A stretch of 64,000 nt of DNA from Candidatus Doudnabacteria bacterium (GCA_041497195.1 JBGQGB010000002.1:172140-236139); one strand, 5' to 3'; shown: positions 5,503 through 42,272, counted from the first letter of the stretch. Numbers and translations: made by a program. Notes: generated from the sequence alone by a model not told the origin.

Positions 5503-7440
<1,938 letters not shown>

Positions 7441-7509: not shown

Positions 7510-8448
7510 ATGAATTTGAAAGAATTGTTTCAGGCAATTCAATTGGGTTATCAAAAAGCTGTGGGTGAAAATTTTACTAATCACCCGCTCGCTATTTTAA
7601 TGCGTGACGCCCCTAACGAAATAATTAAACCATTGTTAGATGACAATGATTTATTTATCAAAGGGTCGGCCGGGATGGGACAATGGACAGAATTGCCGTG
7701 GATAGGAGTTTTTAACAAGAATGAGACCGATGGCGCTAGGGATGGTGTGTACGTTGTTTATCTCTTTTCGGGAGATATGGAACGATTATATCTTTGTCTA
7801 GGACAGGGCATAACAGACCCCATGGAGCAATTCGGAAGAAAAGGAGGTTTGGCAAAGTTAAAAGCCCGAGCAGAACTTGCACGAGCGAATTATAATCTTC
7901 CTGGGTTTGCCACTGATAATAAATTACAACTTTCTGAATCTCAACGTGGGTCAGACTATGAACGAGCTGTAATTTTTTATAAGGAGTATGATCTAAAAAA
8001 CCTTCCCGAATACGAAATTTTAACAAAAGACCTCCTTGAATTGATAAAGCTATATAATGATTATTTGCTTACAGAGAACGTCGCAACAGTTGAAACAGAC
8101 TTTAGTGAGGTTGTGGGTGAGGTTGAGGAGGGAAAGAGATTATTGCGACAACACTACGTAAGGGAACGGAATCGCAGTATAATAAAAGCAGCAAAAGAAA
8201 AAGCTCTCAAAGAGAAGGGAGGCTTGAATTGCGAAGTTTGCGGTTTTTCCTTTCTGATACATTATGGGGAAAGGGGTCGAAATTTTATAGAAGGGCACCA
8301 TAAAAAACCTGTATCTGAATTACAGGCCGGGGAGAAAACAAGTGTTAATGACATTGTTTTAATTTGCTCAAATTGCCATAGCATTATTCATGCTAAGTGG
8401 CCATATTTACCTTTTGAGGAGCTGCAGAAAATTTACCGCTCATCTTAA
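7510..8448 (+). CDS. MrcB-like N-terminal domain (DUF3578) fused to HNH endonuclease; candidate modification-dependent (type IV) restriction enzyme
   Basis: FIKGSAGMGQWTELPWIGVF...GVYVVYLFSGDMERLYLCLGQG matches the DUF3578 signature. A C-terminal HNH is present (CEVCGF...EGHHKKP...CSNCH). The gene is markedly AT-rich relative to its flanks. Confidence 0.75.
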   Translation: MNLKELFQAIQLGYQKAVGENFTNHPLAILMRDAPNEIIKPLLDDNDLFIKGSAGMGQWTELPWIGVFNKNETDGARDGVYVVYLFSGDMERLYLCLGQGITDPMEQFGRKGGLAKLKARAELARANYNLPGFATDNKLQLSESQRGSDYERAVIFYKEYDLKNLPEYEILTKDLLELIKLYNDYLLTENVATVETDFSEVVGEVEEGKRLLRQHYVRERNRSIIKAAKEKALKEKGGLNCEVCGFSFLIHYGERGRNFIEGHHKKPVSELQAGEKTSVNDIVLICSNCHSIIHAKWPYLPFEELQKIYRSS

Positions 8449-31429: not shown

Positions 31430-32744
31430 TGACGTATTTCAGCTATTCAGCTTAATTTGGTTTTTAATGGTCAAAGGCGGGTGGGTCGTTTTGGCAGCCG
31501 GGCTCGTGTATATGTTTGGTTGGCTTTATATGGATCGGATCCAAATGGCTTGGTATCACAAACTCGAATGGGTATTTTTGAAAATCACGGTGCCCAAAGA
31601 AAACGATAAAAGTCCGCTGGCGTTCGAGCAGATTTTTGGCCACGTTCACGCTATGCACGCAACTTTTACCCCAGCCGAAAAATATTTGGAGGGTCAATTT
31701 CAAATCTGGTTCACTTGGGAAATCGTCAGCATCGGCGGTACTATCAGCAACTACGTCAAAATTCTGAAAAAATACCGAGATACTCTCGAGTCGGCCATTT
31801 ACTCACAATTTCCTCAGGCTGAAATCACCGAAACCGCTGACTACTTTGACAGTCTCCCAAAATACAACACGGACACATCCGAGTACGACATTTTCGCTTT
31901 TAATTTCAAATACAAACACCCCAATCCGTACCCGATCCGCAGCTATCTGGAATTCGAACACAGTAGTGCCGACACTTTTGTCGACCCGGTCGACGGCCTC
32001 TGGGAAGAGCTCACGAAAATCAGTCCCTATGAAATGGTCGTGTTTCAATATATTTTCCGGCCCATAGCGGACGATGACTGGAAAGAAACCGGGCGCAAAC
32101 TCGTGAGCAAGCTCAAAGGGGAGCGGGAGGCTTTGGAGGAAAAACCGAATTATTTAGCTCAGGCAGCTGGCTGGCTTATAAACCCCTTCATCGACGCTTT
32201 GATAATCAGGGCCAGCCCCGGGGAGCACCGACCAGCACCACGGAAGGAAGAGTTGCCCCCCAGCCTGATGTTGCATTTGTCTGAGGGAGAAAAAGAAATA
32301 ATCAGCGCGATTGAGCGCAAACTTGCCAAGCTGACTTACCAAACCAAACTTCACGTTCTGTATATAGCCCCCAGGGAAAAGTATAACCCCAGCCCGGTTT
32401 ATACGGCTATAATTGGCGCGATAAAAAGCGTTGGTTCAGCGGACACCAATTCGCTCAAGCCAGACACGCACAAATGGACCAAGGTCCACTACGGAGCATT
32501 TAAAGAGTGGGAAAAACCGATTACCACAACCAGGCTGAACTATCGCAAACGGCGCTTCATGAGCCGGATCAGGCGACGTTTTTATTTCCACGGACCAGCG
32601 CCGATGATTCTCAGTACCGAGGAAATCGCCACGATTTTGCACTTCCCCAGAACCGAGGTCACAGTCCCGCAGATTGAAAAAGTCGAGGTTATGAAAGTTC
32701 AGCCACCACCGGAGTTACCTGTTATTTATGATGAAACTATATGA
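31422..32744 (+). CDS. membrane protein (2 N-terminal TM helices + ~370-aa cytoplasmic domain), hypothetical; putative partner of downstream coupling ATPase
   Basis: N-terminal hydrophobic helices (LFSLIWFLMV, WVVLAAGLVYMFGWLY). An 8-nt overlap with the upstream gene and a 4-nt overlap with the downstream gene. Confidence 0.5.
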   Translation: MFSDVFQLFSLIWFLMVKGGWVVLAAGLVYMFGWLYMDRIQMAWYHKLEWVFLKITVPKENDKSPLAFEQIFGHVHAMHATFTPAEKYLEGQFQIWFTWEIVSIGGTISNYVKILKKYRDTLESAIYSQFPQAEITETADYFDSLPKYNTDTSEYDIFAFNFKYKHPNPYPIRSYLEFEHSSADTFVDPVDGLWEELTKISPYEMVVFQYIFRPIADDDWKETGRKLVSKLKGEREALEEKPNYLAQAAGWLINPFIDALIIRASPGEHRPAPRKEELPPSLMLHLSEGEKEIISAIERKLAKLTYQTKLHVLYIAPREKYNPSPVYTAIIGAIKSVGSADTNSLKPDTHKWTKVHYGAFKEWEKPITTTRLNYRKRRFMSRIRRRFYFHGPAPMILSTEEIATILHFPRTEVTVPQIEKVEVMKVQPPPELPVIYDETI

Positions 32745-34354
32745 ATAACAATCGAGAACACATCAATCTTTTCGCCCGAACCAATTTTCGTAACCGCGAG
32801 GTACCTTTTGGCATCAAGGAAGATGACCGGCGCCGGCACATGTACATCATCGGCAAGACAGGCATGGGAAAGACTACCATGATTGAAAACATGATAGTCC
32901 AGGATATCGCTGCCGGTCACGGCGTGGCCTTTGTCGACCCCCATGGCGAATCAGTCGAAAAGATTCTTCAGTATATCCCTTCCTCGCGCGTCAACGATGT
33001 CGTGTATTTCAATCCCGCGGATATCGACTATCCGATAGCCTTCAATCCGCTCGAGTCAGTCGATCCGAAATACAAACACTTGGTTGCGTCCGGACTGATG
33101 GGCGTATTCACTAAAATTTGGGAAAATGTCTGGAGTGCCCGGATGGAATACATTTTGAACAACACAATACTTGCTCTGCTGGACACTCCGGGCAACACTA
33201 TGCTCGGTATTGCGCGCATGCTGGTGGACAAAAAATTTCGCAAACGAATAACCGACAACACCCGGGATCCAGTGGTCAAATCCTTTTGGATAGATGAGTT
33301 CGCTAATTATAACGATCGGTTCCGCAACGAAGCCATTGCGCCTATCCAGAACAAAGTCGGACAATTTTTATCCTCCGCCATTATCAGAAACATTGTTGGC
33401 CAGACAAAAAGCACTGTTGATTTGCGGGATATCATGGACAACAGGAAGATTTTACTTCTGAATTTGGCCAAAGGCCGCATCGGCGAGGACAATTCGAAAC
33501 TTCTAGGAGCGATGTTTATCACCAAGCTGCAGCTGGCAGCGATGAGTAGGGTAGATGTTCCGGAAGAAGAGCGGGCAGATTTTTATTTGTACGTTGACGA
33601 ATTTCAAAACTTTGCGACGCAGTCGTTCGCGACTATCCTGTCAGAGGCTAGAAAATACCGACTGAATTTGATAATCGCCCACCAATACATTGAGCAGCTT
33701 GACGAGGAGGTCGCCGCTGCAGTATTTGGTAACGTCGGTACAATCATTTTATTCAGGATTGGGGCAACGGACGCTGAAGCCCTGGAGCCTGAATTTTTGC
33801 CGACTTTTGAACAGGATGACCTGGTCAACCTGAGCAAATATCACATTTATCTAAAACTGATGATAAACGGTGTCTCTTCGCAGCCATTTTCGGCTGTCAC
33901 TCTACAGCCGCTTGCAGAAAAAACGGGAAATCTAGATAAGGTCATCAAAGTTTCCCGCGAAAGATACAGCCGTCCGCGCGAACAAATCGAGGAAAAGATT
34001 ACGCGCTGGATGGGACAGGAATACCATAGCGAAGCGGCCCAGCAGGACCTCACGGAAGAAGAGGCAGAGGAGGAAAGGGGAGGAGTGATATTCAGTGGAG
34101 CTACCGCGGCGCCTGCAGCTACGAAGCCTGTTGTAGTAGAAAAACCAGATGCTCCTGCCCCGGCTAACCCCGTACTGAATTCTAAACCACAAGAAAATCC
34201 GGTTTGGCAGAAAGTTGCCAGCGACCAAGAGAAAAAGACCCAAGAGGCAATAAAAAAAGTCTCCAAGACGCTGCGTTTTGATTTTGCTAACAAGAAAAAT
34301 CAACTCCAACCGCCGCGCCCACCAGTTGAGAGTGACAAACCACGACAAACTTGA
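32741..34354 (+). CDS. VirD4/TrwB/TraD-like type IV coupling-protein ATPase (soluble; lacks own TM anchor) with acidic/low-complexity C-terminal tail
   Basis: RRRHMYIIGKTGMGKTT...VAFVDPHGE...VYFNPADIDYPIAFNPLE parallels the TrwB RHLLVNGATGTGKS...VDPNGD...ILNPYD motifs. Walker B FYLYVDEFQNF is present. The C-terminal EEEAEEERG... tail is acidic. Confidence 0.65.
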   Translation: MNNNREHINLFARTNFRNREVPFGIKEDDRRRHMYIIGKTGMGKTTMIENMIVQDIAAGHGVAFVDPHGESVEKILQYIPSSRVNDVVYFNPADIDYPIAFNPLESVDPKYKHLVASGLMGVFTKIWENVWSARMEYILNNTILALLDTPGNTMLGIARMLVDKKFRKRITDNTRDPVVKSFWIDEFANYNDRFRNEAIAPIQNKVGQFLSSAIIRNIVGQTKSTVDLRDIMDNRKILLLNLAKGRIGEDNSKLLGAMFITKLQLAAMSRVDVPEEERADFYLYVDEFQNFATQSFATILSEARKYRLNLIIAHQYIEQLDEEVAAAVFGNVGTIILFRIGATDAEALEPEFLPTFEQDDLVNLSKYHIYLKLMINGVSSQPFSAVTLQPLAEKTGNLDKVIKVSRERYSRPREQIEEKITRWMGQEYHSEAAQQDLTEEEAEEERGGVIFSGATAAPAATKPVVVEKPDAPAPANPVLNSKPQENPVWQKVASDQEKKTQEAIKKVSKTLRFDFANKKNQLQPPRPPVESDKPRQT

Positions 34355-35521: not shown

Positions 35522-37498
35522 CTATTTGACTAAAAATTTCACTATCAAAAGAGCGACGATATTGATGATCTTAATCATCGGGTTTATCGCGGGCCCGGCT
35601 GTATCCTTGTAGGGATCACCGACTGTATCCCCGGTGACTGCAGCAGCATGAGCAGGGGAGCCTTTGCCGCCGTACTGACCCTCTTCAATGTATTTTTTCG
35701 CATTATCCCAGGCAGCCCCTCCTGAGGTCATCGAAATCGCTACGAACAGCCCGGTCACGATTGTCCCGACCAGGAGACCACCCAGCGCTTTGGGTCCCAA
35801 AATAAAACCGACAAGAAGCGGTGCGGCCACTGGAAGTAGCGCCGGGATCAACATCTCTCTCAATGCAGCCTTTGTCACGATATCAACTGCGCGAGCATAA
35901 TCCGGTTTGGTAGTGCCTTCCATGATGCCTTTGATTTCGCGGAACTGCCGTCTGACTTCTTCCACGACCGCCCCGGCGGCCTTGCCAACCGCCAGCATGG
36001 CCATGGACCCGAACAGATAAGGAAGAAGCGCGCCCAAGAATATTCCAGAAAGAACGCGAACATCGGAAAGCTCAAAGACAATTTTGTGTCCCAACTCAGC
36101 CAGCTCTTGGGTATAAGCGCCAAAAAGTACTATCGCAGCGAGGCCCGCGGAAGCGATCGCGTACCCTTTGGTTACGGCCTTGGTCGTATTGCCAACCGCA
36201 TCAAGAGCGTCTGTTACTTTTCTGACCGACTCGGGAAGTCCCGCCATCTCAGCGATGCCGCCGGCATTGTCTGTAATTGGTCCAAAAGCATCAATTGCGA
36301 TGATTATGCCTGTCAAAGACAGAAGTGACATGACCGCGATTCCTACACCGTAAATCCCCGCCAATTTGAAGCTGACAAGAATGCCCCCGACAATCAGGAC
36401 GGCGGGCAGAGCGGTTGCTTCCATGCTCATGGCCAGACCGGTGATGATGTTTGTGCCGTGTCCGCTTGTTGAGGATTTGGCAATGACTTGGACGGGCCGG
36501 AATTTTTTCGAAGTATAATATTCCGTAATCACGAACATTCCCAGAGCTACGACCAGCCCGACAATTGCTGACCAAAAAAACTTCACTCCAGATGAGTAAG
36601 AACTAGTGATCCAGTAAAACCCAGCGGCCCCCAAGAGTCCGCTCACTGCAAGCCCTCGGTAAAGGGCGGTCATTATTTGGCCGGATGCAGGCAATCTGAC
36701 AAAAAAGGTTCCAACGATTGACGCAAAAATCGCCACCCCACCAATAAGCAGCGGGAGGTAGACCAAATCAGCGGCTCCCGGATAGACCAAGCTGCCCAAA
36801 AGCATGACCGCTACCAGAGTCACAGCATAGGTTTCAAAAAGATCCGCGGCCATGCCAGCGTCATCGCCGACATTGTCACCGACATTGTCAGCTATGACCG
36901 CCGGGTTGCGAGGGTCGTCTTCGGGAATACCGGCCTCGACTTTGCCAACCAGGTCTGCGCCAACATCAGCGCCCTTTGTAAAAATACCTCCTCCAAGTCT
37001 GGCAAAAACAGAAATTAGTGACCCCCCAAAGCCCAAACCAATCAGAGATTTGAGATCATGAGTAAGCGCAAAAAAACCGGCAACTGACAAGAGCGCCAGA
37101 CCGACCACAAACAGACCCGTAACCGCACCGCCTTTAAAAGCCAGGTCCAGGGCCTCGCTGAGGCCGCTCTTGGCGGCTTCAGCTGTACGAACATTGGCCC
37201 GGACCGCAACATTCATGCCGATAAAACCAGCCAGAGCCGAGGCGACCGCCCCAATCAAAAAAGCCAGAGCAGTGTTTGCTCCGAGAAATATCCAAACCGC
37301 AACAAAAATTACGACAGCTACCACGCCGACGGTAGTGTATTGGCGCTTCAAGTAAGCATTGGCTCCTTCTTGGATGGCGGCTGCGATGGAGCGCATTTTT
37401 TCGTCGCCTTGGGGTTTCCTATTAATAAACACAGCCAACAAAAGGCCGTAAAGGATGGCTACGACCGAAGCGAGTAGGGCAAACAAAATGGGAGGCAT
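35522..37498 (-). CDS. hppA: membrane-bound proton-translocating pyrophosphatase (H+-PPase)
   Basis: [19 protein letters not shown] and DNVGDNVGD signature motifs. 658 aa, polytopic. Confidence 0.9.
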
Positions 37499-38796: not shown

Positions 38797-39306
38797 CTAC
38801 TTCGCTCTTTTTGGCAAGTTCTTTGTCAAAACCGAGAATTTCAAATGAAATCCCACGACGCCAAAGGCCACGGCCACATTCAGGGATTCTTTCCGGCCGG
38901 ACATCGGGATTTCCAAGACTTTGTCACACTGCTTCAAGATGGCTAGGGGCAATCCTGTCACCTCATTGCCCACGACCAAAGCAGTTAACGGCCACTGGGT
39001 ATTCTCGGCCGCCTTGAAACGAAAATAGGAAACAGCCTTGAGGCTTTGCTCCAATGCGAATATTTTGAAACCACCCCTTTTTAAGCTCTTAATCGCACTC
39101 AAGGAGGCACGGATTTTTTCCCAAGCAACAAAACGCTCAGCCCCCAAAGACACTTTCGCAAGCGGTTTGCGGACCCGGCCGTATCTATCCACTGGCTCCG
39201 GGGTAATACCGCTGAGATAGATTTTTTCTATTCCTAAAGCGTCGGCTGTCCTGAAAATGGAGCCGACGTTATGAAGACTACGGATATTGTCCAAAACAAC
39301 GATCAC
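38797..39306 (-). CDS. SpoU/TrmH-family RNA 2'-O-methyltransferase
   Basis: SPOUT motifs NVGSIFRTADALG, LVVGNEVTGL and IPMSGRKESLNVAVAFGVV. Confidence 0.8.
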   Translation of the reverse strand: MIVVLDNIRSLHNVGSIFRTADALGIEKIYLSGITPEPVDRYGRVRKPLAKVSLGAERFVAWEKIRASLSAIKSLKRGGFKIFALEQSLKAVSYFRFKAAENTQWPLTALVVGNEVTGLPLAILKQCDKVLEIPMSGRKESLNVAVAFGVVGFHLKFSVLTKNLPKRAK

Positions 39307-39788
39307 TTTGTCGTGCTCTTGGGGGGATACAAATCCTTGTCAATGTTGCGGTCAAAGCAAACCCGTCCTGAACCGTGCGCCCAGTTGTCATTAGCGCTGC
39401 CGTCATAGCCGGCTGGAGAAGGGGCTGACATGCGCGCCGGCAAAGGGACAGTTTTTGCCGAATTACTCATACTGGAACCGACATCAAAAGTAGCGCAAAG
39501 CTGAAAACTCTGGGGACTTGTCGCGACATACTGGTACTCCTGGCCGCTCTCGGGATCCCGCGGCACTGTAAAACCGGAAATCGAATCATTGAGCGCAGCC
39601 AGATTCTGCGGGAGAGTAGCTTTGCTCTGCCAATAATACAGAATCTGCGACTGGAGGTTCTGCAAATCCGAAACGCGCCTCTCGTCAAACCGTCGCAATC
39701 GTTCCTGCTGGGGTGAGCCGACTATAAAAAAACCCGTGACTACAGACACGGCTACCAAAACAATAACGATGTAAATGAAATACTTCAT
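39303..39788 (-). CDS. membrane-anchored hypothetical protein (N-terminal TM, extracytoplasmic domain with 2 Cys)
   Basis: N-terminal TM MKYFIYIVIVLVAVSVVTGFFIV. The 3' end overlaps the start of the SpoU gene. Confidence 0.4.
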   Translation of the reverse strand: MKYFIYIVIVLVAVSVVTGFFIVGSPQQERLRRFDERRVSDLQNLQSQILYYWQSKATLPQNLAALNDSISGFTVPRDPESGQEYQYVATSPQSFQLCATFDVGSSMSNSAKTVPLPARMSAPSPAGYDGSANDNWAHGSGRVCFDRNIDKDLYPPKSTTK

Positions 39789-40282
39789 TCATCTTTGTGC
39801 TTACGTAAGTCCCAGAGGTAGTAGGAAAAAATTGAACCGGCGATAAACAGGACTGTCAAAACTTTCAAGATAAAACGCACTGTCAAATCGCCGCCCAGAA
39901 GGTTGTAGACCAGGGTCACCAAATCGCCAATAATAATCACGGCAGCTACAAACAACGTCAGATAAATGAGCCATTTTCTGATGCGCAAACTCAGCTTTTC
40001 TGGATCGGATGAGTAAATCTTATTGAGATATTTTGTCACCAAAATATAAGTCGGAAAAACGATTATCAACGAAGCGATAGACCAACGAATGGAACTATAG
40101 GCGGACGTCAGCGCGTAGGAATTTTGCTCCAAAGGATCAGGAATCGAAATATTTATATAATTAAAAATCAGCGACCAAAAACTGCCAGCGCTGAAATAGA
40201 GCGTAAAAATGGCCAAAAGATGCAGAAATACGTCTCGCGGCCCGCCTTTTGATACTGTTTTGCCACTAACCTCTGGGGTCAT
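39785..40282 (-). CDS. 4-TM membrane protein, hypothetical
   Basis: 165 aa, hydrophobic. The 3' end overlaps the start of the downstream gene. Confidence 0.4.
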   Translation of the reverse strand: MTPEVSGKTVSKGGPRDVFLHLLAIFTLYFSAGSFWSLIFNYINISIPDPLEQNSYALTSAYSSIRWSIASLIIVFPTYILVTKYLNKIYSSDPEKLSLRIRKWLIYLTLFVAAVIIIGDLVTLVYNLLGGDLTVRFILKVLTVLFIAGSIFSYYLWDLRKHKDE

Positions 40283-40330
40283 ATTGATTGAAATATAGCA
40301 CTTTAGCCGTTTGCCAACAAGCCAGAAGTC

Positions 40331-41863
40331 CTAGCCTGAATAGCCGGTAAAAAAATCAGTTTTGATATTATGACTGGCGACTCCCATTTTTTGCAGCATC
40401 TTCTTGTAAGACACGACCATCGGGTCTGGCCCGGAAACATAAAACAGACAGTCTTGCCAATTCGGGACCTCGCTCTTAATCATGTCACTATCGATACGCC
40501 CGGTTTTGCCTTTCCAAGCGCTGCCGGCACTTTGAGAGTCGGTTGTTGTGCGCACGATTTTTAGACCGATTTTTTCGGAAGCTTCTTGAAACAAATCGCC
40601 AAACACAAATTCTTCCGGTGAGCGGCTCGCATACAGAAGGGTAATGGAAACTTTCTGGCCCCTGTCGAGAATATCCCGAATAATGCTGCGAAACGGCGTG
40701 ACTCCGATTCCGCCAGCGATAAAGACTAAATGCCGGCTAGTTTTGTTTCTTACGACAAACTCACCCTCTTTATTGCTGGCTATAATTTTCTGGCCAGGCT
40801 TCAAATCTTTCAAGGCTTTTTTGAAACTACTTGAGACCTCGACAAATTTCGTAACCAGTAAAATACCTTTCTCACTCGGAGCAGATGCAATCGTAAAATA
40901 GCGCCTGATGCCTCGGCTGTCCGGATGTGAGTGGGGGAGCGTCCATTCCAAAAACTGCCCGGCTGTAAAAACAAAAGGCCGCTCCGGCTCAAACCAAAAG
41001 GCGACGGTGTCCTTTGACAACGACATTGTTTCACGCAAACGCAAAACCAGACGAATGTCGCGTGAAAAAATACGTGACCCAACATTACCGACAAGCAAAG
41101 CCAGTTCGAGACTATAGGGGACCTGCGTATACCTTTGCACTGCTATCAAAACCAGAGCAACAAAGACTCCGAAATAAATCCTAGGCAATCTATTCTGCGG
41201 GCCCGTGAGAGGCTCTATCAGCATGACAAAGGTAAAAAACAAAAGTGGAGAATATAAAACTAAGCTCTTCAGGAGCGGCCAAAACGTACCGATCCCAGCG
41301 GGGGAAAATGCTGACCCGACGAATAGAGCCGCGAAATATGTAAGAAGAAAACTGAGTGCCAAATGCCAGCGTCGGATCTTTCCCACAACTAGCACACCAC
41401 CGAGAATAATAAAAGGGACTAGAAATTGGTTCCCGACCCACCAACTAGCGCCTGTTTTTAGCAGAAGTGCTGAAACCACGACGGCAAAAGCAGTAGGATT
41501 TAAAATATGCCTTTTATTTATGACCAGAAGATATTTGGAAGCCATGGCCACTACAGCGATGGCAGCCAAAACCCAAACGCTGGCGAAGGGAGCCAACGGA
41601 CCAACTATCAAAGCCAAAATCAATCCGGTGATAAGTGCTGATTCAGGATTCGGCGTGGTCCGAAAAACGTAGGCGAACAGCTTGTTACTAGCATAACTCA
41701 CCAAAACCAAAAAGCCTCCGGATAACAAAATGTCCGTAGCCTTGAAAGCCAGGACTCCCGCAAAGCTGAGAAGAGAAGCAATTGCTACTAAACCAATCAA
41801 GTAGTACAGCATTAACCTGTACATGGTCACTCGATTGAGAATGTCCTGGAAAAACTTACTCAA
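40331..41863 (-). CDS. fused membrane oxidoreductase: N-terminal ~330-aa polytopic domain (possibly NqrB/RnfD-like) + C-terminal FNR-like FAD/NAD(P)H-binding module
   Basis: The C-terminus has the RRYFTIAS (RxYS/T) FAD motif and the GGIGVTPF NAD(P) motif. The N-terminus has about 8 TM helices, with HILNPTAF and KTGASWW motifs. Only two His lie in the membrane part, which argues against a bis-heme FRD domain. Confidence 0.55.
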   Translation of the reverse strand: MSKFFQDILNRVTMYRLMLYYLIGLVAIASLLSFAGVLAFKATDILLSGGFLVLVSYASNKLFAYVFRTTPNPESALITGLILALIVGPLAPFASVWVLAAIAVVAMASKYLLVINKRHILNPTAFAVVVSALLLKTGASWWVGNQFLVPFIILGGVLVVGKIRRWHLALSFLLTYFAALFVGSAFSPAGIGTFWPLLKSLVLYSPLLFFTFVMLIEPLTGPQNRLPRIYFGVFVALVLIAVQRYTQVPYSLELALLVGNVGSRIFSRDIRLVLRLRETMSLSKDTVAFWFEPERPFVFTAGQFLEWTLPHSHPDSRGIRRYFTIASAPSEKGILLVTKFVEVSSSFKKALKDLKPGQKIIASNKEGEFVVRNKTSRHLVFIAGGIGVTPFRSIIRDILDRGQKVSITLLYASRSPEEFVFGDLFQEASEKIGLKIVRTTTDSQSAGSAWKGKTGRIDSDMIKSEVPNWQDCLFYVSGPDPMVVSYKKMLQKMGVASHNIKTDFFTGYSG

Positions 41864-42272
41864 CGATTATGGCGCCGCCCTTACTGGCATTGAGGTGATT
41901 GTGATACCCCCAATGGCCAGTTTTTGTAAAAGTGAACGAATAGGATTGCCCTGGCAGCGTACCTGCCAGAGCGTCGAAGCCCGGGTAGTCAGTATGGATC
42001 GGGTGTGGATTGGAAGCAGTCCACATCGGGTCCGAGCTTTGGTTCACAAAAGTCACTGTCTCGCCGGCTTTGATAGTGAGTGTTGCAGGAGAGTAACCTG
42101 AGTCCGTATAAATTACAGTGTTGCCGGAATTTGCCGGCTCGTTTCCACCACTCGACTGGGTGCCTCCCGGTCTTTGCGGTGTAATGGAGGGGACGGGAGC
42201 AGTGTGCTTAAAAAAATACCACCCTCCCAGGATGACAACGATGACCACAATTGCTATGATGAGTGTTTTCAT
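41856..42272 (-). CDS. membrane-anchored cupredoxin-fold protein lacking Cys ligand, His-rich
   Basis: N-terminal TM. TLTIKAGETVTFVNQS...HPIHTDY...SYSFTFTKTGHWGYHNHLN follows the cupredoxin (Cupredoxin_1-like) pattern, but there is no Cys. It overlaps the oxidoreductase start. Confidence 0.45.
   Translation of the reverse strand: MKTLIIAIVVIVVILGGWYFFKHTAPVPSITPQRPGGTQSSGGNEPANSGNTVIYTDSGYSPATLTIKAGETVTFVNQSSDPMWTASNPHPIHTDYPGFDALAGTLPGQSYSFTFTKTGHWGYHNHLNASKGGAIIVE

Follow-up and report, generated by a model that had tools for sequence, protein, structure and literature searches.

A stretch of 64,000 nucleotides (nt) from Candidatus Doudnabacteria bacterium (GCA_041497195.1, JBGQGB010000002.1:172140-236139), hereafter referred to as the window, carries a minus-strand operon between positions 38,797 and 42,272. 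Two overlapping genes of this operon are the subject of the present analysis, one encoding a membrane-anchored cupredoxin-like protein without cysteine and the other a fusion of an RnfD/NqrB-like membrane domain with an NqrF-like domain of the ferredoxin-NADP reductase type (FNR-type), which binds flavin adenine dinucleotide (FAD) and NAD(P)H (reduced nicotinamide adenine dinucleotide or its phosphate). A total of five minus-strand open reading frames (ORFs), as proposed in a preliminary description made from the sequence alone, were recovered by ORF calling, and the start of the fusion gene was confirmed to overlap the end of the cupredoxin gene, by 8 nt. On balance, the overlapping gene pair appears to form a two-subunit outward electron exporter, a variant of the Nqr/Rnf-like system. 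The features of the pair are as follows.

41856-42272, minus strand: cupredoxin-like protein, ORF of 138 amino acids (aa)
41994-42005, minus strand: H90-P-I-H93 of the cupredoxin, with H90, P91, and H93 invariant in 28 homologs
41895-41906, minus strand: Y123-H124-N125-H126 of the cupredoxin, with H124 and H126 invariant, aligned by HMMER to amicyanin YHC92TPH95PFM98
40331-41863, minus strand: fusion protein (RnfD/NqrB-like plus FNR-type), ORF of 510 aa with a TTG start
41054-41863, minus strand: RnfD/NqrB-like membrane domain, residues 1-270, both termini predicted to be cytoplasmic (Pfam, profile, hhalign, and AlphaFold2)
41495-41509, minus strand: H119-I-L-N122-P123, the HxFNP motif, in a predicted cytoplasmic loop before transmembrane helix 5 (TM5), with H119, N122, and P123 invariant
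41438-41452, minus strand: G138-A-S140-W-W142, in the short periplasmic loop linking TM5 to TM6, with A139, W141, and W142 invariant
40331-41053, minus strand: NqrF-like FAD/NAD(P)H-binding (FNR-type) domain, residues 271-510, cytoplasmic (Pfam, profile, and Foldseek)
40883-40906, minus strand: RRYFTIAS, the FAD motif, residues 320-327, conserved in 28 homologs
40691-40714, minus strand: GGIGVTPF, the NAD(P) motif, residues 384-391, conserved in 28 homologs

In the NCBI annotation (GCA_041493695.1, P0001) the fusion protein is shorter, 493 aa, with its start at M18 (window 41812-41863). The longer form with the TTG start is supported because the N-terminal segment LNRxTMYRL (residues 5-16) is conserved across homologs. 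Within the C-terminal domain, Pfam identified FAD_binding_6 (PF00970) and NAD_binding_1 (PF00175), the latter with an E value of 1.5e-15, and NqrF was its best relative of solved structure (E 1e-23). Upon alignment of 28 homologs, R320, R321, Y322, F323, T324, G384, G385, G387, P390, and F505 were found to be invariant or nearly so, and the characters of the FNR superfamily, RxY(S/T), GxGxxP, and an aromatic residue near the C terminus (F505), are all present. The FNR-type module of the preliminary description is thus borne out, and the loss of its FAD and NAD motifs upon alignment, which had been named as a ground for rejection, was not observed. FNR-only paralogues of about 225 aa, without the RnfD domain, were also encountered in genomes of the candidate phyla radiation (CPR) (L046-L051, L060, L065, L066, L071, and L105), being 34-41% identical to the C-terminal domain of the fusion protein, and some of them stand beside cupredoxins (L050 and L105).

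The fusion protein matched the Pfam family NQR2_RnfD_RnfE (PF03116), scoring 39.6 bits where the cut-off is 27.7. When the TM domain was searched as a single sequence, no solved structure was matched, and a family profile was needed; the profile of the N-terminal 270 residues matched RnfD (8ahx_D, E 9e-8; 7zc6_D, E 5e-4) and NqrB (7xk3_B, E 8e-7), and the membrane domain was aligned by global hhalign to Escherichia coli RsxD over 259 columns with 97.5% probability. These matches altogether bear out the NqrB/RnfD-like nature of the N-terminal domain, which had been raised as a possibility, and an assignment to a non-redox transporter family, which had been considered as the refuting outcome, did not emerge. 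Foldseek with the full-length fusion model was uninformative on the membrane domain because the matches covered the FNR domain only. In the AlphaFold2 model of the fusion protein (pLDDT 83.8), ten TM helices within residues 14-266 are followed by the cytoplasmic FNR domain, and the initial estimate of about eight helices has to be corrected to ten. RnfD and NqrB likewise contain ten TM helices and two flavins about 8 Å from each other, riboflavin toward the cytoplasmic side and covalently bound flavin mononucleotide (FMN) toward the periplasmic side (review, PMC12174285).

The TM domain contains exactly two histidines (H119, which is invariant, and H167), in agreement with the earlier count, and no cysteine. 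The Pfam search of the fusion protein gave no match to Ferric_reduct (PF01794), and a bis-heme ferric-reductase domain, already judged unlikely, was ruled out on these grounds, only one of the two histidines being conserved. Flavin rather than heme is expected in this domain because it combines two histidines only with the RnfD fold. The HxFNP motif is common to RnfD and NqrB (NPFNPA in RsxD), as seen in the alignments to NqrB and RsxD. In addition, ASWW of the fusion protein aligns with TSWL of RsxD (QMTSWL), EPLT aligns with DPVS of NqrB, and E74 and E217 have acidic counterparts in NqrB. Residues 145-225 of RsxD (about 80 residues, including the flavinylated Thr187 within SQATPLD) have no counterpart in the hhalign alignment, which passes directly from residue 144 to residue 145 of the query, and the covalent-FMN site is judged absent from the fusion protein because this loop is deleted. 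KTGASWW had been named among the motifs of a possible flavin-binding domain, with a check of the conserved Thr or Ser for covalent FMN; an attachment of FMN at this motif did not survive the finding of the deleted loop. S140 in GASWW, a residue of the periplasmic loop that is Ser in 14 of the 14 cupredoxin-clade members (see below), was examined as the covalent-FMN site and rejected, for it aligns to TSW of RsxD and not with the flavinylated Thr, and, within an FMN clade where S, T, N, or D occurs at this position, it is N or D in several members. On this analysis, the membrane domain is proposed to carry a non-covalent flavin.

The cupredoxin is composed of an N-terminal TM helix (residues 2-22), a low-complexity linker rich in Pro, Ser, and Gly, and an 88-residue β-sandwich domain (51-138), which is predicted to face outward because some homologs carry a lipobox in place of the TM anchor. 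The match to Pfam Copper-bind reached 22.4 bits against a cut-off of 21.2, and that to Cupredoxin_1 stayed under its cut-off. The family profile matched amicyanin with an E value of 6e-11, and Foldseek with the AlphaFold2 model (pLDDT 83.6) placed plastocyanin, purple cupredoxin, and amicyanin on top (E 1e-7 to 1e-8). The protein contains no cysteine, and the preliminary description of a Cys-less cupredoxin with a site other than type 1 agrees with all these results.

Among 28 cupredoxin homologs, W84, A86, S87, H90, P91, H93, H124, and H126 are invariant. Read as a motif, H90 would be the counterpart of the first type-1 His ligand (PHxxH; His53 of amicyanin, PH53NVH), and H93 is an additional invariant His. 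In the HMMER alignment, Cys92 of amicyanin is replaced by N125, which is conserved in at least 90% and is Asp in 2 of the 28 aligned homologs and in tandem-domain relatives; His95 is replaced by Asn, and Met98 by a variable residue. As judged from this alignment, a type-1 blue copper site is excluded because the positions of the type-1 Cys, the second His, and the Met are all lost. The conservation of the four histidines suggests a type-2-like all-N/O site, with copper as the most likely metal, and this form of the protein is hereafter called the His4 cupredoxin.

At E ≤ 1e-30 the cupredoxin family counts 1,506 representatives, and a number of classical type-1 repeat proteins are among them. 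The top many-repeat representatives were considered as poly-His4 proteins and, on reading, turned out to be classical Cys-containing type-1 repeats. Two proteins, P0241 and P0243, are larger than 1,000 aa and contain 7-10 tandem classical Cys-containing type-1 cupredoxin domains with Pro-rich linkers and a C-terminal TM anchor, for which a role as a multi-copper electron conduit is possible. A Cys/His-rich repeat protein without Pfam match (CSHGFFEY, CYHGVGHG) adjoins a His4 cupredoxin at two loci (L152, 2158-3417; L154, 2117-3496), and P0244 combines a comparable Cys/His-rich region with two His4 cupredoxin domains in a single chain.

The fusion family is large, with more than 4,800 matches among 8,000 scored candidates, and the window protein shares 43-57% identity with the best 120 of them. 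A genome scan with one genome per species yielded 37 loci with the fused gene, a few of them truncated where a contig ends. Numerous CPR lineages are represented, as are Chloroflexota (among them the cultured Dictyobacter and Ktedonospora), Mesorhizobium, Methylocapsa, and others. Neighbouring ORFs were clustered, the clusters were identified with Pfam, and hidden Markov models (HMMs) were then built from the FMN_bind and ApbE neighbours. With these HMMs, FMN_bind was detected at 31 of the 37 genome loci and ApbE at 28, and the canonical order at most of the loci is FMN_bind, then ApbE, and then the fusion gene. The same HMMs gave no match among all ORFs of at least 40 aa in the window, and no credible match in any cupredoxin-linked locus.

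At these latter loci the cupredoxin and fusion genes are immediate neighbours, as found in the window and in L002/L003, L004, L009, L042, and L169. The fusion protein of L002/L003 is 57% identical to that of the window, and that of L004, from Andersenbacteria, is 47% identical with wholly different flanking genes. Within a metagenome scan seeded with the cupredoxin profile (80 loci, L087-L166), the fusion gene adjoins the cupredoxin at about 15 loci. The orientation varies, the fusion gene being either co-directional and downstream of the cupredoxin gene or convergent with it.

The cupredoxin next to the fusion gene is not always of the His4 type. In L004, which belongs to the same fusion clade as the window, the fusion gene is adjoined by that of a blue copper protein with the classical ligands His, Cys, His, and Met, and the first of the two cupredoxins in L042 is also of classical type 1. 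A type-1 cupredoxin is located directly 5' of a Ferric_reduct + FAD_binding_8 + NAD_binding_1 protein in L056, which is another kind of NAD(P)H-driven transmembrane exporter, and a type-1 cupredoxin lies beside an FNR-only paralogue in L050. Electron transfer to the cupredoxin is supported because classical one-electron carriers are encoded at the place otherwise taken by the His4 protein, which suggests that the His4 cupredoxin is a remodelled descendant of a classical carrier.

In a tree of the fusion proteins, the cupredoxin-linked members (the window, L002, L004, L009, L087, L091, L093, L106, L111, L122, L130, L144, and L156) form one clade apart from the FMN_bind/ApbE-linked proteins. L007 also falls within this clade without a partner nearby, and the L042 protein is an outlier on a deep branch. 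When only the loci found through the fusion protein were counted, an adjacent cupredoxin was present at 5 of 9 cupredoxin-type loci versus 0 of 31 FMN-type loci (Fisher p = 2e-4), a comparison unbiased toward the cupredoxin because of this way of counting. Positions that distinguish one clade from the other are concentrated toward the outside end of TM9 and in the loop joining TM9 to TM10, with P241, H244, G246, Y249, and P252 in the FMN clade (H244 being 100% conserved in this clade only) and A236, Y250, and L252 in the cupredoxin clade, as would be anticipated for an outer surface co-evolving with another partner. Conservation of the gene neighbourhood, proposed at the outset as a check, has thus turned out in favour of the cupredoxin as a plausible partner of the fusion protein, through the recurrent adjacency, the separate clade, and the classical type-1 proteins in the same position.

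For the exporter proposed here, the hydride of NAD(P)H would be passed to FAD in the cytoplasmic NqrF-like domain, from where electrons would move singly into the 10-TM RnfD/NqrB-like domain, which by homology with RnfD and NqrB is expected to hold its non-covalent flavin near the cytoplasmic face. On the outer face the electrons would exit to the copper of the membrane-tethered cupredoxin and from there reach the final acceptor, the cupredoxin acting as a carrier or possibly as the terminal reductase itself. In canonical systems the outer-face flavin is that of the ApbE-flavinylated FMN_bind protein, whereas in this clade both genes are missing and the cupredoxin gene stands in their place. 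The domain homologies, the conserved motifs, the deleted loop, the gene neighbourhoods, and the clades are observations, whereas we infer in this scheme which cofactors and which metal are bound, which way the electrons flow, and where they end; outward flow from NAD(P)H is the thermodynamically sensible direction.

Several points weigh against this scheme. About 80% of the cupredoxin loci lack a nearby fusion gene, and 4 of the 9 cupredoxin-type fusion loci (L007, L167, L168, and L170) lack a cupredoxin within 4-5 kilobases (kb), the distance covered in L007 being 3.5 kb upstream. The tree is a neighbour-joining tree of 48 fusion proteins without support values, and its labels carry ascertainment bias because the metagenome loci were chosen through the cupredoxin. 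With the loop deleted, the distance from the cytoplasm-side flavin to the external copper may be too long, and this gap in the outer half would have to be filled by a free or second flavin or by the metal site of the cupredoxin entering the FMN pocket. In the literature, no experimental work was found on the Nqr/Rnf-like family, which is known from bioinformatics.

Other gene associations were observed at the loci collected. In L007, of which the fusion protein is 50% identical and the upstream gene order is that of the window, genes for a DsbA-like thioredoxin, which is membrane-anchored, and for VKOR lie directly after the fusion gene (5545-6731). Among the 80 cupredoxin-seeded loci, the neighbour of the His4 cupredoxin is a Cys-free DoxX/MauE-like protein with four TM helices in 13 cases and a DsbA-like protein in eight. 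In L092 and L100 it is a signal-peptide protein, apparently starting with HGG after the signal peptide as judged by eye. Genes of the ZIP, Fur, and YibE_F families are located 3-5 kb from cupredoxin-type fusion genes without an adjacent cupredoxin (L167, 1128-3544; L170, 9811-11509), and this may reflect shared gene-order ancestry in related genomes.

The fusion protein might instead act alone, as a reductase transferring electrons from NAD(P)H to quinone or another small acceptor through NqrB-derived sites, with the cupredoxin as an unrelated neighbour. We hold this to be rather unlikely. It would accommodate both the four cupredoxin-type loci without an adjacent cupredoxin and the majority of cupredoxin loci without a fusion gene, and NqrB binds ubiquinone as well as riboflavin (PMC12174285). 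It is opposed by the recurrence of the adjacency across proteins 45-57% identical, with differing flanks and orientations, by the mutual exclusion of cupredoxin adjacency and FMN_bind/ApbE, and by the classical electron-carrier cupredoxins in the same position. Patescibacteria are reported to be without quinone biosynthesis, and this was counted against a quinone reductase.

Two further explanations retain the export of electrons and differ in the destination. NAD(P)H electrons might serve extracytoplasmic thiol/disulfide or oxidative-damage chemistry, being delivered directly or via the cupredoxin to Dsb-type proteins in organisms without a quinone pool, and the DsbA-like and VKOR genes directly 3' of the fusion gene in L007, the DsbA-like gene directly upstream of the cupredoxin at 8 of the 80 loci, the DoxX/MauE-like gene beside it at 13, and DsbB beside the cupredoxin and NOX-like pair of L056 all point in this direction. 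The window operon, however, contains no Dsb, VKOR, or DoxX gene, DsbA and VKOR normally take electrons out of the periplasm, which is the opposite direction, and a one-electron copper centre would be an odd disulfide donor; with association counts that are small and perhaps in part due to shared gene-order ancestry, we consider this explanation very unlikely. An assimilatory metal reductase, in which the His-rich cupredoxin binds and reduces extracellular Fe(III) or Cu(II) to feed an importer, is judged distinctly improbable. VIT1 iron transporters are present in six NQR/RNF-like clusters, for which iron assimilation was suggested (Méheust et al., PMC8238504), the ZIP, Fur, and YibE_F genes of L167 and L170 lie near the fusion gene, the L056 cupredoxin stands 5' of a ferric-reductase-type protein, and iron redox chemistry is performed within FtrABCD by FtrB, itself a cupredoxin without Cys. 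On the other side, no metal transporter is encoded in the window operon, the L167 and L170 loci share their flanking gene order and are themselves without a cupredoxin, and FtrB oxidises Fe(II) and does not reduce Fe(III).

The remaining genes of the operon and the neighbouring energy gene are as follows.

39785-40282, minus strand: DUF5671 protein (Pfam)
39303-39788, minus strand: 161-aa protein, N-terminally anchored (ORF)
38797-39306, minus strand: SpoU methyltransferase (Pfam)
35522-37498: H+-PPase, neighbour of the operon

A gap of 48 nt separates the fusion gene from the DUF5671 gene, and the overlap is 4 nt both between the DUF5671 and 161-aa genes and between the 161-aa and SpoU genes. 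Scans for promoters and terminators gave consensus-level matches only, not clearly above shuffled expectation. The genes for DUF5671 and the 161-aa protein recur only in L002/L003 and, in a fused form, in L056, and are absent at the other cupredoxin/RnfD-FNR loci, and the SpoU gene lies beside the module in the window only. For this want of conservation, the two small membrane proteins and SpoU, which had been included in the module at first, were ruled out as its parts, and the products of 38797-40282 are probably operon neighbours rather than components of the redox module. The DUF5671 and 161-aa proteins are separate, with the 4-nt overlap, in the window and L002, and are joined into a single protein of 328 aa in L056 (7657-8643), which suggests that they act together. 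The 161-aa protein contains a pilin-like segment, RxxDxxxLQxxLxxYW.

The H+-PPase, named in the preliminary description as the energy gene of a window that shows no other sign of a respiratory chain, was confirmed, and nothing respiratory was found among 10 otherwise unassigned ORFs. Two other genes, unrelated to the redox finding, were observed in the window: an MrcB_N + HNH endonuclease gene (7510-8448), which may be a restriction system, and a gene for a TrwB/DUF87-type coupling ATPase (32741-34354), which follows that for a 440-aa protein without Pfam match and may be involved in DNA transfer or uptake.

CPR bacteria are thought to be nearly devoid of membrane redox machinery, and the Nqr/Rnf-like family is one of few candidates. 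The exchange of the flavinylated partner for a cupredoxin would provide a second, independent indication that this family exports electrons to an outward one-electron carrier, and it would represent a natural swap of a flavin carrier for a copper carrier, comparable to the swaps of flavodoxin and ferredoxin and of plastocyanin and cytochrome c6. A large cupredoxin family with a remodelled all-histidine site is predicted at the same time. As an extension that we regard as unlikely, the outer flavin half might be replaced by copper in such a way that the four-His type-2-like centre makes the pair a minimal NAD(P)H-driven terminal reductase for O2, superoxide, or nitrite. If true, this would be a two-gene extracellular redox enzyme for bacteria without a respiratory chain, and a route of energy conservation as well, provided that ion coupling has been kept in the RnfD-like domain. 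The pair is small, two genes and about 650 residues, and should suit heterologous expression.

The preliminary description had also suggested that the module is possibly undescribed. This holds in part: the RnfD/NqrB-NqrF fusion itself is already described (PMC8238504, PMC10979944), and in the literature searched no relevant link between cupredoxin and RnfD, and no description of a cupredoxin-partnered clade, was found. What looks new is the replacement of the usual flavin partner and of the flavin-attaching enzyme by a cupredoxin with four conserved histidines and no cysteine.

Compared with known proteins, the window cupredoxin shares the fold with type-1 blue copper proteins such as amicyanin and plastocyanin and is related to them in sequence, the first His being kept in PHxxH, but it differs in the change of Cys to Asn or Asp, in the loss of the second His and of Met, and in the new H93, H124, and H126. 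It resembles the Cys-less cupredoxins of the FtrB/EfeO type (Cup-II) in being periplasmic and without the type-1 Cys, and these have a proposed non-classical Cu(II) site and metal redox chemistry. FtrB, however, with Asp and His as proposed ligands, belongs to an iron importer, whereas the window cupredoxin is linked to an NAD(P)H-driven exporter, and no FtrB match was found among the best 60 of the 96 cupredoxin profile matches or among the 50 Foldseek matches listed. The fusion protein follows the same logic as bacterial fusions of the NOX/ferric-reductase type and MsrQ-like-NAD fusions, in which a polytopic membrane domain and an FNR module together export electrons; these contain a bis-heme Ferric_reduct domain with four histidines, whereas the window protein has two and the RnfD fold.

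With RnfD and NqrB of the RNF and Na+-NQR pumps, homology extends over the full length, and ten TM helices, HxFNP, TSW/ASWW, and (D/E)P(V/L)T are shared. The pump subunits carry the covalent-FMN loop of about 80 residues, with attachment by ApbE, whereas this loop is deleted in the window domain. The RnfA, E, G, C, and B partners of the pumps are absent from the window operon, RnfA and RnfE not having been searched with models of their own. Unlike in the pumps, the NAD(P)H dehydrogenase is part of the same chain as the RnfD-like domain.

The closest known relatives are the NQR/RNF-like systems, which join a membrane domain of the NqrB/RnfD type to an NAD-binding domain of the NqrF type (Méheust et al. 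2021, PMC8238504). They were identified in 127 flavinylation gene clusters, mainly of Actinobacteria and CPR (PMC8238504), and a two-subunit Nqr/Rnf-like complex was modelled (Huang et al. 2024, PMC10979944). These systems and that of the window have their core subunit in common, the flavinylated Thr is missing in both, both occur in CPR, and the proposed role, one-way electron transfer from NAD(P)H to the outside, is shared; canonical clusters include homologs with 37-50% identity to the window protein. By homology, the window fusion protein is a member of this family as judged from its sequence, but the window system falls outside the defining context of the family because neither ApbE nor FMN_bind is present. 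The cupredoxin-linked subfamily as a whole fell outside the published definition because this definition required a flavinylation-associated cluster. In canonical clusters the fusion gene is directly preceded by the genes for ApbE and an FMN_bind protein of the NqrC/RnfG type, whereas the window has the cupredoxin in that place.

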